This document shows, piece after piece, positions 56,701 to 64,000 of a stretch of 64,000 nucleotides of DNA. The DNA comes from Candidatus Omnitrophota bacterium. GTDB lineage: Bacteria > Omnitrophota > Omnitrophia > Omnitrophales > Aquincolibacteriaceae. How positions within the stretch are numbered: position 1 is the stretch's first letter; each line of letters opens with the position of its first letter. The stretch is taken from assembly GCA_903856085.1 (NCBI GenBank), contig CAIOAT010000037.1:1249-65248 (forward strand). Direction: 5' to 3'. Position numbers: made by a program.

Positions 56701-59700
56701 GTTACGAATTGCGATGTGTTCCAATACGGCCATTTGGTCAATGCAGCAGGGCTTGACGCGGACTCCTTGGCACATCGGATGGGCGTGGGTCTTAAATACA
56801 GAATCCTTCCTTTTAAGGGGGCGTATAAAAAAATCGCACCGAACAGCCCCGCACAATTTCGCGGCCTGGTTTATCCGACGCCCGATCCGCAGCTGCCATT
56901 CCTGGGGGTGCATATCACTAAAAATGTCTATGGGGAGCTGTTTTTAGGGCCCACGGCCACACCAGCACTAGGATGCGAAAACTATACGGGTTTTCAGAAG
57001 ATTGATTATCTTAGGCTTCCGAAGAATTTCTGGTACCTGGGGTGTATGTTCGTGATGAATCGTAATGGCTTTTTCAATCTGGTGCGCTCCGAGATCGCGA
57101 AGTATAGTGCAAAGGGCTTCTATGAAGAGGTGAAAAAGCTTTCCCCTTTTATACGACCTCAAGACATTATCGGTTGCGACAAGGTTGGTATACGCGCTCA
57201 GCCGTTCGATTGTTCCACCATGCAGCTTGTCATGGATTTTCTTGTTGAAAAGGGGCCTGCGTCGACGCATATTTTAAATGCCGTCTCGCCGGCATTTACA
57301 AGCAGCTTTGCACTGGCCGAAAGCATCGTGAATGGGATCGAAAAAGATCTCAACGCTCCCCACTAGGTCGGGCTGAGAGGATTTGCATGTTTAGATTTCT
57401 CAAGATTGACATTTTAGTTCAGCAAGTTCAAGCCTTCTCAAGACTCTTTTTCCATGATCTTCGTGAAATTCGCTCAGTTTTGACGCCTGAACTTAATCGG
57501 AAGATGATTAGTCTTCGATTTCTTATGCTCTCTGTCGCCACTCTTGAAGTTCTCACTATTAATGTTATTGCTTTTTTTAGTGCCTCTGTGGCATCTCCCG
57601 AGAGAGTTAAACACTCATTCCTTATGAAGCCTGTTTTGAAGGTGTTCCCGGCCCTTGATCTTTGGTTTGCGGACAATCGAAAGTTCATTTTTTTTATGTC
57701 ACTGGTTATTGTTTTTTTTATTATTGTCAAAAACTTGTTAACTGCCATGAGCAGCTGGAAAGTGGCTGTTTTCTCCGAGAATGTGTCGCGGGAAATCGGG
57801 TCGGAGATCATGAGACGATTTCTTTACAGCCCCTACCGCTGGCATCTTTCGAGCCATAGCGCTGCGACTTTTCAGGCGATGGGGTGGCGAGGAAATCTCA
57901 CGATCATGATTACTTCGTTATTGAATGTCCAAAGTTACGTTATTACAACTCTCTTTCTTTTCGTCGGGCTGACATTTGCCGCGCCCCTCTTGACTTTCTG
58001 CGTCTATCTCTTTATGGGGGGGATGGGTTTGCTTACATATAAACTCATTCGAAAAAGTGCTGACCGTGCCGGTGCTGATTCCGCCTTCGCTTCGGCTCGC
58101 GAAACAGGCGCTGTCATGAATGCTCTCAGGGGTATCCGTGAGGTACTCATTTACCGTCAACAGCCCGTTTTTCTTGAGGCTGTTTCAAATGCCTCAGAAT
58201 CCGGCACGAAACCTCGCGCTTATCTGACCATTGCTTCCACGATTCCCACATGGGTTCTGGAGATTTGCGGATTTTCGATCATCAGTTTTGCCATTGCTGT
58301 GCTTATTGCTCTGTGGAATGCGGATATGGCCCGGATCACAAATGTGGTTGTGCTTCTTATGCTGACGGCTTGGCGCGCATTGCCCTCCCTCAATAAGGTT
58401 GTTAACCTGATGATTGCTATCCGAGGCCTCAAGCCTGTTTCCACTCCGTGCCTTGAGATCCTCAAATCCCTTCGAAAAAATGTTTTAGAATTACCACCAC
58501 CGCCTGATCCGGATTTTTCCTTCAAGCAAGATATTCGATTGCGTGAAATAAGCTTTCGCTATCCCAGCAGCGCAAACGATTGCCTTATGAATATTTCCCT
58601 CACAATACCCAAAGGGGCACTGATAGGCTTTATTGGGCCCTCGGGGGCCGGGAAAAGCACGATCACGACCATTCTGAGCGGTCTCCTCGATCCGACGTCT
58701 GGAATGATGCTTGTCGATGGAAAAAGCCTCAGCCCTGCGGAACATGCAGCCTATTGTCTCCGTGTCGGTTATGTGTCGCAAAGCCCTTACCTTATGGCCG
58801 GAACTGTTGCGGAAAATGTCGCATTCAGTGAATGGGGGAAACCCTATGATGAGGAGCGAGTCCGTCAGGCTTGTAAAATGGCTGCGGCGGATTTTGTCAC
58901 GGCTGAGCGTGGAGGGATTCTGATGCCTCTTGGAGAGAATGGTAGCGGACTTTCCGGCGGACAAGCTCAGCGTATCGCCATTGCGAGAGCCCTTTACGCC
59001 AATCCTGATATTATTATTTTTGATGAGGCGACCAGTTCGCTAGATCAAGCTAACGAAAAACTCATTCAAGATACAGTTCTCTCGTTAAGGAAAGGCACCA
59101 CTAGCCTTGTTGTGGCGCACCGCCTAACGACTATCGAGGTATGCGACTACCTTTATTGGCTTGATGGAGGAAGACTTTTCGCGGAAGGTACGCCTGTAGA
59201 GATATTGCCGCGTTATGTTAGCAGTATGAAGGCGACGTCTGCCTCTCCATCATGAATGGAATCACCGCCTGATTCAGAAGCAATTTTTTTAATATATTCG
59301 ATATTTCTTTTGGGGGTGAGAGATAAGTAAATGCGAGCATTAATAACCGTGGAACAGAGGGCCTCGATTTGTTAATATTTGCAGCTTGTTAACGGGTGGA
59401 CTAAAAAAGGAGTGGGGGGCATAGAGAAGACATGACATTTTTCGGGAATTATAGTGGTAGGTTGGCTCAGGCGTTCCAGCTTGTGCCTCATAAGAACTTG
59501 GATCTTTTTTTTGATAAGGTTCTTGCTGTTTGGAAAAAGAATGGGCATGTCTTTATCTGTGGGAACGGGGGAAGTGCCGCCAATGCGATGCATATCGCTA
59601 ATGATCTGTTCTACGGTATTGCCAAGGGCAACGGGAAAGGGATTCGAGTGCATGCGCTAACCTCCAACCAGCCTGTCATGACGTGTCTTGCCAATGACGT

Positions 59701-62700: not shown

Positions 62701-64000
62701 GTCCTTCATGGAGGACAATAATAACTGGCATTACAGGACACCCAAACCGGAAGAAGTTGTTGCGGCTAGAAAAGAGCTAGGGCTCACCAAGTCATGAGAA
62801 ACATTTTCGCCAAAGAGCTAACGAAATTGGCTACGGAAAATCCGCAGGTGGTTCTTCTTTCGGGAGATATTGGCAATAAGCTGTTTGATGATTTTAAGGA
62901 CGCGGCACCTAATCGTTTCTATAATTGTGGCGTGGCAGAAGCCAACATGACAGGCATGGCCGCAGGGTTTGCCATGAGCGGCTTTCGTCCTGTCACTTAC
63001 ACGATCACACCTTTTGCGACAGTCCGTTGTCTTGAGCAGATACGAGTCGACGTTTGCTACCACAATCTGCCGGTGACAATCGTAGGTACGGGGTCCGGAC
63101 TTTCTTACGCGGAACTTGGCCCGACGCATCATTCTTGCGATGACATTGGCCTTTTGAGGATGTTCCCTAATATTTCTATCGTTTGTCCGTGTGACCCAAT
63201 AGAAGCCCGCCTTGCACTCGGAGCTGCCTTGCAACAGGAGGGCCCTGTCTATCTACGACTTGGGAAAAAAGGCGAGCCTAACATTCATCCGAGTGAACCT
63301 GATTTCAAGATTGGAAAATCCATCACCGTGAGAGAGGGGCGTGATCTGTGCCTCTTAAGTACGGGGAATGCTATGTCCCTTTCATTAACCGTGGCCGAGA
63401 AGCTTTTGGAAGCAGGTATGTCCGTGCGAGTGGAAAGCTTTCACACCGTGAAGCCTTTAGATGCGACGCTTCTCAGGGATGTTGCTTCTTCATATAAAAC
63501 GATCGTGACCCTAGAAGAACATAGTCTCATCGGCGGATTGGGGAGCGCAGTTGCGGAGTGGATGGTAGACAATGATGCTTGTGACTGCAGGCTTCTTAGG
63601 TTTGGCACAGGGGATTACTTTTTGAACACTCCTGGGAAACAGGCTTACGCGCGCGCACAGTACGGACTCACAACGGAAAAGATTGTGGCGAAAATCCTCA
63701 AAGAATGCGTTGCCTGATGTCTGCAAAAAATCTTTTGGTCGGTATCGATTTCGACAACACGATCGTCTGCTACGACGATATCTTCCATCGGGTCGCTTCG
63801 GAAAGAGGCTTGATCTCAGGCAACACTCCCAAGAATAAAGAAAGTGTCCGGGACTATTTGCGTCAAGCGGGCAAAGAGGATGTCTGGACTGAAATGCAAG
63901 GCTATGTCTATGGAGCTCGGATGTCCGATGTCTCGGCATTTCCAGGGGTTCTTGACTGCATCGCGAAGCTACGGTCGCATGGAATTCCGGTTTTCATCAT

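Follow-up and report, generated by a model that had tools for sequence, protein, structure and literature searches.

To our knowledge, few cases of ThDP-dependent carbon–carbon bond formation on sugars have been described; that of YerE has been demonstrated, and those of the split-gene transketolases in Streptomyces antibiotic clusters are proposals only. In the biosynthesis of yersiniose A by YerE and YerF, a 4-keto sugar carried on a nucleotide receives a C2 unit from a ThDP enzyme, after which the ketone of the new side chain is reduced by a reductase. YerE resembles acetolactate synthase; it is of the decarboxylase type, takes pyruvate as donor, and transfers acetaldehyde. The lincomycin octose pathway employs the transaldolase LmbR, the GmhA-like isomerase LmbN, the kinase LmbP, the phosphatase LmbK, and the nucleotidyltransferase LmbO. 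LmbR yields octulose-8-phosphate, which LmbN isomerizes, and plant transketolases also make octulose-8-phosphate (PMC5854111). For miharamycin and amipurimycin, an oxidoreductase is proposed to act before a two-subunit, split-gene transketolase that adds a hydroxyacetyl group to a keto sugar (PMC12247030). The split transketolase of Carboxydothermus hydrogenoformans is an active canonical enzyme, and a transketolase in two pieces can serve as a fully active housekeeping enzyme (PMC7661550). Among heptose-tailoring enzymes, the dehydrogenase Cj1427 sets free a 4-keto heptose and reduces 2-oxoglutarate to L-2-hydroxyglutarate (PMC10680097).

A split transketolase also occurs in a glycan locus of a Candidatus Omnitrophota bacterium, near the end of the 64,000-nucleotide stretch of DNA analyzed here (the window). 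An earlier note on this DNA had read six genes at the window edge as a dedicated supply of sedoheptulose-7-phosphate (S7P) for a GmhA enzyme, and had offered as a second reading that the transketolase builds a two-carbon unit. The six genes prove to be the leading part of a sugar-modification cassette of nine genes. The second reading fits the data better and is held with at most moderate confidence: the split transketolase probably places a two-carbon unit onto an unusual sugar rather than providing an ordinary supply of S7P.

Gene content and distribution of the cassette

All six genes (a gmhA-like SIS gene, two SDR genes, both halves of the transketolase, and a HAD gene) are present as earlier noted (Table 1). 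Their intergenic gaps are operon-like, at 10, 16, 4, −4, and −1 nt from SIS to HAD. The TKβ start shares 4 nt with the TKα stop, and the HAD gene does begin with the TGATG stop/start overlap reported at the window edge, at position 63717. Because three public metagenome contigs (L001–L003) that are identical to the last 11,207 bases of the window reach approximately 7 kb beyond it, the downstream genes could be read. The HAD gene is completed there (L001 10924–11550; 208 amino acids, ending at window-equivalent 64343) and is followed by genes for an APH/choline-kinase-fold kinase, a SAM methyltransferase (MT), a Zn-alcohol dehydrogenase (ADH), and a TPR-glycosyltransferase. A single coherent sugar-biosynthesis module thus runs past the window edge, as had been anticipated, but these genes stand where an hddA/hldE-like kinase gene and a nucleotidyltransferase gene were to be sought.

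Table 1. Cassette genes in the window and their two upstream neighbors
Feature	Position	Strand	Length	Match or motif
L-2-hydroxyglutarate oxidase (LhgO)	56152-57366	+		NF008726, above cutoff
MsbA/PglK-like ABC exporter, directly 5′ of cassette	57387-59255	+		ABC_tran domain
GmhA-like SIS_2 sugar-phosphate isomerase, divergent (SIS)	59432-60001	+	189 aa	Pfam SIS_2, TIGR00441
RmlB-resembling extended SDR, atypical motifs (SDR1)	60012-61007	+	331 aa	TIGR01181
Cj1427-like extended SDR (SDR2)	61024-61962	+	312 aa	nearest PDB 6vo6/6vo8
Transketolase alpha, N-terminal ThDP-binding subunit (TKα)	61967-62797	+	276 aa	Pfam Transketolase_N
Transketolase beta, pyrimidine-binding and C-terminal subunit (TKβ)	62794-63717	+	307 aa	Pfam Transket_pyr and Transketolase_C
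HAD-superfamily phosphatase (HAD)	63717-64000	+	first 94 codons within window	motif I DFDNT

The genes for SIS, SDR1, SDR2, TKα, TKβ, HAD, kinase, MT, and ADH constitute one cassette. GTDB species genomes with cassette loci number at least 507 and represent more than 12 phyla, comprising bacteria and some archaea; orthologues of all nine proteins share 41–87% identity across phyla. This arrangement is not due to chance, because the same set recurs, in the same or permuted order, in dozens of loci from many phyla. Frequencies were counted next to the kinase gene in the 44 loci with sufficient flanking sequence. Its most constant neighbors are HAD (98%), MT (95%), TKβ (93%), TKα (91%), and SDR1 (91%), whereas ADH (86%), SDR2 (86%), an HldE-like gene (64%), and SIS (52%) are less constant; cyanobacterial cassettes lack both SIS and ADH. 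Thus, the transketolase is tied much more tightly to HAD, kinase, MT, and ADH than to the GmhA-like gene, which argues against a role in supplying GmhA with S7P.

Certain partners are joined more directly. Natural HAD–kinase fusions account for 8 of the top 120 homologues and are seen in 5 of the 44 loci, and one homologue (P0244) is a TKβ–ADH fusion. SDR2 lies immediately upstream of TKα in 30 of 54 related loci, and a radical-SAM/SPASM protein occupies its slot in three loci without SDR2. Such adjacencies and fusions show coupling, not the direction of a reaction.

A heptose-class context for the cassette is plausible. The link to NDP-heptose drawn in the earlier note holds insofar as SIS is nearest to GmhA, SDR2 is nearest to a heptose C4-dehydrogenase, and most related loci carry an HldE-like gene; it does not extend to genes for heptose activation on the contig. 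By phmmer and HMM scans of all window ORFs and the 7-kb tail, neither an HddA/HldE-type (GHMP, PfkB) kinase nor a pathway nucleotidyltransferase (HddC/HldC/HldE type) was found. The window encodes two NTP-transferases and no others: RfbF, which scores 474 bits and exceeds its cutoff, and an RmlA-like protein. Both belong to other pathways. The HldE-like proteins of related loci score below cutoff, at 95–130 bits against heptose enzymes and about 40 against TagD, and have a reversed domain order in which the N-terminal nucleotidyltransferase domain weakly matches glycerol-3-phosphate cytidylyltransferase. The upstream exporter, whose scores against the MsbA (252 bits) and PglK (239.6 bits) models are both below cutoff, occupies the same position in loci L007 and L008.

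Cassette partners of the transketolase

SIS matches Pfam SIS_2 (2.5e-19), and its nearest solved relatives are the GmhA structures 1tk9 and 2xbl. However, it reaches only 118.9 bits against the gmhA model TIGR00441 (equivalog cutoff 209.45) and 89–98 bits against other GmhA models (cutoffs 265–320). In the numbering of B. pseudomallei GmhA (His64, Glu68, Gln175, His183), both catalytic/metal His residues are kept, and Glu68 is replaced by Asp and Gln175 by Glu in all five cassette orthologues aligned. A metal site in the cassette SIS is plausible.

The top PDB matches of SDR1 are RmlB enzymes, but assignment as a dTDP-glucose 4,6-dehydratase fails at the equivalog score (209.8 bits against TIGR01181, cutoff 365.1) and at the catalytic motifs. 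SDR1 and its cassette orthologues conserve STPEVYG in place of STDEVYG and YxxxR in place of YxxxK; the genuine RmlB of the window (26754–27743) has TDE and YxxxK. SDR2 matches 6vo6/6vo8 at 111 bits (next best 75), with about 33% identity over 290 residues and a common SPRMRLDLxVN motif. The 6vo6 structure is presumably that of Cj1427, the heptose C4-dehydrogenase of C. jejuni. SDR2 is probably a sugar dehydrogenase that releases a keto product. The substrates of SDR1 and SDR2 might be other than nucleotide sugars.

The nearby L-2-hydroxyglutarate oxidase gene scores 344.7 bits against NF008726 (cutoff 299), and homologues adjoin the cassette in L009/L010, L014, L015, L067, L069, L078, and L090. 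Its proximity to SDR2 is suggestive of a mechanism of the Cj1427 type, with a tightly bound NAD(H) that 2-oxoglutarate recycles, in which the oxidase could possibly serve as an accessory enzyme that recycles the SDR2 cosubstrate.

Motifs I–IV of the HAD protein (DFDNT, ISHKT, ETKxEK, FIDDL) are conserved in all orthologues and place it, by sequence, in the HAD phosphatase superfamily, although Pfam HAD matches to the full-length protein are weak. A GmhB-like role had been suggested for this protein. GmhB is a capless (C0) HAD-IIIA enzyme, whereas the cassette HAD scores 15.3 bits against TIGR01662 (HAD-SF-IIIA; cutoff 44.6) and carries a C1 cap, a helical segment of about 75 residues between motifs I and II. 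Furthermore, when an orthologous HAD domain was modeled (pLDDT 94), its structural neighbors were 5′(3′)-deoxyribonucleotidases, the most similar, and AphA, and GmhB was absent from the top 50. The assignment as GmhB was rejected on these grounds in favor of a 5′(3′)-deoxyribonucleotidase-like type.

The kinase matches Pfam APH (27.9 bits, cutoff 23.2) and has the invariant motifs SPSDFGFHN and LDFEYAG. The structures nearest to its model (pLDDT 94.6) are LicA, choline kinases (ChoK), NahK, and aminoglycoside kinases. The modeled fold, the DxxxxN catalytic loop, and the DFE/DFG Mg-binding motif identify it as an APH/choline-kinase-fold small-molecule kinase. The ADH is a classical Zn-ADH.

Compared with the ADP- and GDP-glycero-manno-heptose pathways (GmhA, HldE or HddA/HddC, GmhB) and with heptose tailoring in C. 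jejuni by Cj1427, epimerases, and reductases, the cassette shares a GmhA-like isomerase and a Cj1427-like SDR, its kinase and HAD fit the bisphosphate logic, and an HldE-like gene accompanies most relatives. It differs in that the SIS and HldE-like proteins fall below the cutoffs, the HldE-like domains are reversed, the kinase has an APH/choline-kinase rather than a GHMP/PfkB fold, and the HAD is not GmhB. Also, those pathways have no counterpart to the cassette transketolase, Zn-ADH, or methyltransferase.

The substrate pocket of the transketolase

TKα matches Pfam Transketolase_N (3.4e-40), and the closest solved structure is the C. hydrogenoformans split transketolase (TKα against 6yak, 235 bits; TKβ against 6yaj, 203 bits), which is likewise split into an α2β2 assembly and agrees with the cassette enzyme in its ThDP-binding and catalytic residues. 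Positions are given in the numbering of an E. coli transketolase sequence in which the expected residue was found at each check position. Equivalents of His26, His66, His100, Asp155, Asn185, and His261 are kept by TKα, in the window protein and five orthologues, and those of Arg358, Ser385, Glu411, and His473 by TKβ. The ThDP/metal-binding and catalytic residue set of a canonical transketolase (EC 2.2.1.1) is thereby present.

The canonical sugar-phosphate recognition set (Arg358, Ser385, His461, Asp469, Arg520) is broken at three positions, where the window TKβ has Gly461, Leu469, and Lys520. In about 75 cassette TKβ sequences, residue 461 is always Gly, and Asp is never found at 469, where Leu, Asn, or Gly stands instead; the same sequences keep Arg358, Glu411, and His473. 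The C. hydrogenoformans enzyme, by contrast, retains His and Asp at the equivalent positions. Because His461 and Asp469 are replaced in the cassette orthologues, the residues present indicate that the cassette enzyme is not a canonical sugar-phosphate transketolase. An ordinary sugar phosphate as substrate would also fit the retained Arg358 and Lys520. In E. coli transketolase, the D469T substitution creates a hydrophobic surface and favors non-polar acceptors (PMC10787763).

The altered pocket extends to a wider group of proteins. Among the nearest representatives of clusters at 50% identity, 149 of 150 proved non-canonical at 461/469, with diverse residues at 469 (L, A, E, Q, N, D, S, Y, and others). 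All 150 score at least 216 bits, against 203 for the canonical C. hydrogenoformans enzyme.

Schemes for the cassette product

The best explanation, which is offered tentatively, is that the cassette makes a modified heptose-class sugar for a surface glycan and that its split transketolase serves in tailoring, as a dedicated enzyme transferring a C2 unit, and not in the pentose-phosphate pathway. The enzyme retains its ThDP and ketol-handling residues but has lost His461 and Asp469, with which canonical transketolases grip an aldose-phosphate acceptor by its phosphate and its 2-hydroxyl, respectively. A neighboring oxidoreductase would make a carbonyl on a sugar intermediate, probably nucleotide-linked; candidates are the Cj1427-like SDR2, the radical-SAM/SPASM enzyme where SDR2 is absent, and the Zn-ADH. 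The transketolase would then move a two-carbon glycolaldehyde (ketol) unit onto that carbonyl, so that the sugar gains either a hydroxyacetyl branch or two further chain carbons. The Zn-ADH would reduce the new keto group, and the methyltransferase would finally methylate the product. Supply and activation of the sugar phosphate would fall to the GmhA-like isomerase and the HAD–kinase pair, joined in most relatives by the HldE-like kinase/nucleotidyltransferase. The analysis shows which genes are present, how they are conserved, how often they occur together, where they are fused, which active-site residues are substituted, and which structures are nearest; which substrates are used, in what sequence the steps run, and what kinase, HAD, and methyltransferase do is inferred.

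The logic proposed for the transketolase and ADH is that of YerE and YerF. In sequence, YerE and the cassette enzyme have only the ThDP fold in common; the latter is a transketolase in two pieces and retains the His residues that serve a dihydroxyethyl (glycolaldehyde) intermediate. The miharamycin and amipurimycin proposal, itself biochemically unproven, likewise places an oxidoreductase before a two-subunit transketolase. Compared by description rather than by sequence, those are actinomycete antibiotic clusters, whereas the cassette belongs to a glycan locus with HAD, kinase, MT, and ADH in many phyla.

Aldehyde acceptors are strongly preferred by transketolases, and we know of no demonstrated transfer by a transketolase to a ring ketone. 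The C2-tailoring scheme leaves the kinase, HAD, and methyltransferase without assigned necessity, in that it does not account for their roles, and this counts against it, as do the lack of a pathway nucleotidyltransferase on the contig and the retained Arg358 and Lys520.

A rather unlikely alternative is that the transketolase builds a precursor in the manner of LmbR and LmbN, joining a C2 ketol to an unusual aldose phosphate to yield a non-standard ketose phosphate such as octulose-8-phosphate or a deoxy or methylated heptulose phosphate. SIS would convert this to an aldose, the APH-fold kinase or the HldE-like PfkB kinase would act at C1, and HAD would strip the terminal phosphate; after activation by a nucleotidyltransferase, the SDRs, ADH, and MT would tailor the NDP-sugar. 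As in the lincomycin pathway, a central-metabolism-type C–C bond-forming enzyme would feed paralogues of heptose enzymes toward a higher-carbon NDP-sugar. That pathway differs in using a transaldolase (C3) rather than a transketolase (C2), other kinase and phosphatase families, and no ADH or MT partners. The GmhA-like and HldE-like proteins are nearest to heptose enzymes yet all below the equivalog cutoffs, which fits paralogues acting on a different sugar; the HAD–kinase fusion suits a kinase/terminal-phosphatase pair, and the phosphate-binding Arg358 and Lys520 are retained. The octulose-8-phosphate produced by LmbR and by plant transketolases is a further precedent (PMC5854111). However, SIS occurs in about half of the loci, compared with more than 91% for the transketolase, and along with ADH it is missing from cyanobacterial cassettes. 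The TKβ–ADH fusion and the adjacency of SDR2 to TKα would be left unexplained, and a phosphorylated acceptor is less likely with His461 lost.

It is improbable that the product is a polyol-phosphate substituent. In this case, the transketolase would make a small ketose (phosphate), which the Zn-ADH would reduce to an alditol as TarJ does with ribulose-5-phosphate; kinase and HAD would set the phosphate position, MT would methylate, and the N-terminal cytidylyltransferase of the HldE-like protein would form a CDP-alditol for phosphodiester attachment. The TKβ–ADH fusion, the classical Zn-ADH, the choline-kinase-like kinase with its DFEYAG motif, and the weak cytidylyltransferase match are all consistent with such a route. 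Yet it offers no role for two nucleotide-sugar-type extended SDRs (86–91% of loci) or the GmhA-like isomerase, the HldE-like protein is far closer to heptose enzymes than to TagD, and the contig lacks a cytidylyltransferase of that fold.

The main reading of the earlier note, in which R5P and Xu5P would yield S7P for GmhA in a canonical NDP-(6-deoxy)heptose pathway with HAD as GmhB, is now very doubtful. It could draw on the GmhA-nearest SIS, on an SDR2 nearest to a GDP-heptose C4-dehydrogenase, on GT9 heptosyltransferase-like and WcbI-like genes in the window, and on the GHMP-kinase/NTP-transferase or HldE-like genes that adjoin the cassette in some relatives. Against it stand the association of transketolase and SIS in only about half of the loci, the sub-cutoff SIS with its catalytic Glu changed to Asp, a HAD of another type, and a contig without HddA, HldE, and HddC genes. 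The cassette also occurs in cyanobacteria, in which S7P is an intermediate of the Calvin cycle. Furthermore, the canonical His461 and Asp469, replaced in every cassette transketolase, are kept in working transketolases (PMC7661550). That TKα/TKβ is an ordinary housekeeping enzyme, in the glycan locus by accident, is very unlikely: split housekeeping transketolases exist and the genome is viewed through this contig alone, but the pair always lies inside the same cassette across more than 12 phyla, shares start/stop overlaps with its neighbors, has a non-canonical pocket, has 150 nearest cluster representatives that all score above the canonical C. hydrogenoformans enzyme (149 of them non-canonical), and is carried by cyanobacteria, among others, whose Calvin cycle requires a canonical transketolase.

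Returning to the C2-tailoring scheme, it is conceivable, if speculative, that the cassette enzyme represents the first glycan-tailoring transketolase. It would belong to a large, hitherto unrecognized split-ThDP clade with Gly461 and a variable residue 469 and would graft glycolaldehyde onto a sugar carbonyl, probably nucleotide-linked. The product would be a C2-branched or chain-extended, methylated heptose-class sugar, made with the aid of a 2-oxoglutarate/L-2-hydroxyglutarate cycle run by SDR2 and LhgO.

A defined cassette, a diagnostic active-site change, and natural fusions turn the annotation "transketolase in an O-antigen locus" into testable enzymology. In metabolic reconstructions from MAGs, a "transketolase N/C subunit" encoded in a glycan locus should not be counted as pentose-phosphate-pathway capacity. 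Possible outcomes include new biocatalysts that accept non-canonical acceptors and a monosaccharide new to science in the envelopes of environmental cells, among them the Omnitrophota, of which little is known. If the proposal is true, hundreds of environmental lineages, both bacterial and archaeal, would carry an undescribed sugar on their surfaces.

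Composition and distribution of the cassette

The six genes that the earlier note had described at 59432-64000 are present as described, including the TGATG overlap, with intergenic gaps of 10, 16, 4, -4, and -1 nt. An exact-protein look-up located the same contig (approximately 70.9 kb) in three public metagenome assemblies (loci L001-L003), which match the last 11,207 bases of the window exactly and provide approximately 7 kb of additional sequence beyond its edge. Promoter and terminator scans of the region from 56 to 64 kb revealed sites no more common than in shuffled sequence.

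Nine genes, from the GmhA-like SIS gene through the Zn-dependent alcohol dehydrogenase (ADH) gene, are common to the neighborhoods of transketolase homologs at 68-85% identity, found in Ca. Omnitrophota, an acidobacterium, and metagenome contigs. The components of this cassette are orthologous throughout (41-87% identity to the window proteins). When an alignment of the kinase was searched against GTDB, with each species represented by a single genome, at least 507 cassette loci were confirmed. The nearest named homologs, at 64-85% identity, point to Ca. Omnitrophota as the source of the contig. Carriers include Omnitrophota, Planctomycetota, Cyanobacteria (Microcoleus), Acidobacteriota, Nitrospirota, several proteobacterial classes, Chlamydiota, Elusimicrobiota, Chloroflexota, Armatimonadota, and some archaea. 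Annotations of the homologs offer nothing beyond "transketolase", "phosphotransferase", or "hypothetical", and no account of the cassette was found in the literature on split transketolases or on transketolases in connection with O-antigen, sugar nucleotides, heptose, or HldE.

Eighty retained loci were scored with HMMs of the cassette proteins, and frequencies relative to the kinase were derived from the 44 with enough flanking sequence. Because both transketolase subunits (TKα and TKβ) are found near the kinase far more often than the GmhA-like gene (91-93% versus 52%), the transketolase belongs to the core of the cassette and the GmhA-like gene is optional. C-methyltransferase and DUF6016 genes also lie 3' of the cassette in approximately 20% of related loci.

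Coordinates of the features discussed. Positions are those of the window or, past 64000, window equivalents, unless a homologous locus (L number) is named; the last column gives the share of 44 loci with the gene near the kinase.
Feature	Position	Strand	Share of 44 loci
SIS_2 protein (SIS), GmhA-like, 189 aa	59432-60001	+	52%
SDR1, extended SDR, 331 aa	60012-61007	+	91%
SDR2, extended SDR, 312 aa	61024-61962	+	86%
TKα, Transketolase_N protein, 276 aa	61967-62797	+	91%
TKβ, Transket_pyr + Transketolase_C, 307 aa	62794-63717	+	93%
HAD ORF, motif DFDNT, start at 63717 via TGATG overlap	63717-64000 (window edge)	+	98%
Complete HAD, 208 aa	ends 64343		
APH-family kinase, 342 aa	64340-65368		
Class-I SAM methyltransferase, 223 aa	after kinase		95%
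Zn-dependent ADH, 343 aa	after methyltransferase		86%
TPR protein with TIGR04372 glycosyltransferase domain	67121-69295 (L001 14328-16502), after ADH		
118-aa ORF	last gene, then contig end		
L-2-hydroxyglutarate oxidase	56152-57366	+	
HldE-like proteins adjoining cassette, below both rfaE domain cutoffs	L028 2853-4517, L025 3234-4766, L045 3507-5180, L014 13328-14809		64%
Radical-SAM/SPASM proteins	L016 1734-2870, L017 6459-7619, L050 5442-6536		
HAD-kinase fusion, 530 aa	L007 11750-13342		
Second transketolase pair	L090 14892-15818		
CDP-glucose pathway genes	48518-53055	+	
ORF adjacent to the TIGR04372-family domain gene	53004-53921		
TIGR04372-family glycosyltransferase domain	54899-56119	+	
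WcbI-like and GSCFA-family genes	40304-42353	-	
GT9 heptosyltransferase-like and PMT_2 genes	37779-40261	+	
2-oxoacid:ferredoxin oxidoreductase subunit genes	30620-32969	+	

The transketolase active site and its gene partners

The nearest solved structure is the split transketolase of Carboxydothermus hydrogenoformans (235 and 203 bits), which is an active enzyme (PMC7661550). When the window protein was aligned with this enzyme and with E. coli TktA, whose numbering is used here, the ThDP, metal, and catalytic residues proved to be kept (His26, His66, His100, Asp155, Asn185, His261, Arg358, Glu411, and His473), and TKβ was found to carry the substitutions His461 to Gly, Asp469 to Leu, and Arg520 to Lys. 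At each of thirteen positions checked, the TktA sequence used has the residue that is expected there. In the yeast and E. coli transketolases, His461 takes part in binding the substrate phosphate, and Asp469 forms a hydrogen bond to the acceptor aldose 2-hydroxyl, which corresponds to the donor 4-hydroxyl. Among approximately 75 cassette TKβ proteins, position 461 is Gly in all, and position 469 is Leu, sometimes Asn, Gly once, and never Asp. An engineered D469T variant acquires a hydrophobic surface and favors non-polar acceptors (PMC10787763).

From an exhaustive search over 1.84 billion cluster representatives, the nearest 150 TKβ clusters were taken, each of which scores higher (216-402 bits) than the canonical C. 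hydrogenoformans enzyme (203 bits). All except one of the 150 are non-canonical at positions 461/469. Gly occupies position 461 in most of them, and position 469 is highly variable, with L in 80, A in 16, E in 10, Q in 8, N in 7, D in 5, and other residues in the rest. Because of this near-uniform departure and this variability, the window enzyme belongs to a large non-canonical split-transketolase clade with a diversified specificity residue. Such diversification is the pattern expected of tailoring enzymes, not of a pentose-phosphate enzyme. For two other non-canonical TKβ types (P0255 and P0257), contigs of only approximately 2 kb yielded nothing informative in gene context. A second, more divergent non-canonical transketolase pair of the Gly/Leu type is also present approximately 6 kb downstream of the cassette transketolase in a Planctomycetia MAG (L090).

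Of 54 loci, 30 have SDR2 directly 5' of TKα and 12 have SDR1 there; the gene 3' of TKβ is HAD in 26 loci and ADH in 16. Furthermore, a metagenomic protein of 658 aa (cluster representative P0244) is a natural fusion of TKβ with a Zn-ADH. In three loci without SDR2, a radical-SAM/SPASM protein is encoded directly 5' of TKα and, by analogy with radical-SAM dehydrogenases, is putatively a non-orthologous replacement of an oxidizing step. HAD-kinase fusions are frequent, occurring in 8 of the 120 best kinase homologs, including that of L007, and in 5 of the 44 loci.

Other cassette enzymes and the heptose context

The SIS protein is closest to GmhA (1tk9, 99 bits) and scores well under the GmhA equivalog cutoff; both active-site His residues are kept, and in all orthologs the catalytic/metal Glu is replaced by Asp and Gln175 by Glu. 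SDR1 is RmlB-like but has Thr-Pro-Glu for Thr-Asp-Glu and Tyr-x-x-x-Arg for the catalytic Tyr-x-x-x-Lys. These changes are conserved across cassette orthologs, with Lys only in L007, and the genuine RmlB of the window has Thr-Asp-Glu and Tyr-x-x-x-Lys.

SDR2 is far closer to 6vo6/6vo8 than to any other solved structure, and the aligned sequence is presumably that of Campylobacter jejuni Cj1427. Cj1427 is a ping-pong C4-dehydrogenase that oxidizes GDP-glycero-manno-heptose and converts 2-oxoglutarate to L-2-hydroxyglutarate (PMC10680097). An L-2-hydroxyglutarate oxidase gene, above the curated NCBIfam cutoff, lies upstream of SDR2, and homologs adjoin the cassette in seven other loci (L009/L010, L014, L015, L067, L069, L078, and L090). 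Because Cj1427 generates L-2-hydroxyglutarate, the oxidase may by analogy recycle the cosubstrate of SDR2.

Searches of PDB sequences with the kinase and with the HAD protein returned no matches, and therefore both were modeled and subjected to fold searches. The HAD protein carries the four HAD motifs together with a helical C1 cap, and the structures closest to its model (pLDDT 94) are 5'(3')-deoxyribonucleotidases and AphA, not GmhB. For the kinase model (pLDDT 94.6), the closest structures are choline kinases, NahK, and aminoglycoside kinases, a set of neighbors that does not discriminate between substrates.

The earlier note anticipated a heptose-type kinase and nucleotidyltransferase beyond the window, and regarded downstream genes unrelated to heptose activation as evidence against its proposal. 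The approximately 7-kb tail encodes an APH-fold kinase, a methyltransferase, ADH, and a glycosyltransferase instead, with no GHMP kinase, HldE-like gene, or nucleotidyltransferase, and HMM and phmmer scans of all window ORFs detected no GHMP kinase or HldE-like gene. The gene content of this contig therefore counts, in part, against that proposal. The HldE-like proteins of related loci have both heptose-specific domains as their best-matching families, and their scores fall below the cutoffs. Their domain order is reversed relative to E. coli HldE, with the adenylyl/cytidylyltransferase N-terminal and the PfkB kinase C-terminal.

Two NTP-transferases are encoded in the window, the glucose-1-phosphate cytidylyltransferase RfbF (474 bits, above cutoff) in a CDP-6-deoxy-C-methylhexose gene set and an RmlA-like protein in a dTDP-rhamnose gene set. 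Assigning either to the cassette is unsupported because each lies within its own complete pathway gene set. The CDP-glucose pathway to a C-methylated 6-deoxyhexose looks complete, comprising RfbF, a CDP-glucose 4,6-dehydratase, an RmlC-like epimerase that narrowly misses its cutoff, a TylCIII-type C-methyltransferase, and an SDR reductase. A TIGR04372-family glycosyltransferase domain is encoded in the window, next to an ORF that matches no family, and a second, TPR-fused, lies downstream. Elsewhere, a GT9 heptosyltransferase-like gene, which scores below its cutoffs, and a gene for a PMT_2 glycosyltransferase lie just upstream of WcbI-like and GSCFA-family genes on the opposite strand, an arrangement consistent with heptose use by this organism. 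Subunit genes for a 2-oxoacid:ferredoxin oxidoreductase, the first VorB-like (510.8 bits, above cutoff), are also located amid glycan-biosynthesis genes.

Proposed role of the split transketolase

Our tentative preference, still somewhat short of probable, is that the transketolase is a dedicated C2-transferring tailoring enzyme. A carbonyl would be made on a sugar by SDR2, the radical-SAM enzyme, or ADH, the split transketolase would transfer a C2 unit to it, and ADH would reduce the new ketone. YerE/YerF follow the same logic, as does the oxidoreductase and split transketolase proposal for miharamycin/amipurimycin, itself unproven (PMC12247030).

A scheme like that of LmbR/LmbN, in which the GmhA-like isomerase would act on an unusual ketose phosphate made by the transketolase, has precedent (PMC5854111) and is possible, if on the unlikely side, and a CDP-polyol scheme is doubtful. 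The data speak for a sugar of the heptose class as the context of the cassette and against a transketolase that merely supplies sedoheptulose 7-phosphate to GmhA; this original idea is improbable. A housekeeping transketolase is very unlikely.

Overall, the chemistry proposed here, ThDP-dependent C–C bond formation, is already familiar from sugar biosynthesis. What is new is a widespread, uncharacterized cassette with a diagnostic active-site signature, which merits biochemical follow-up.
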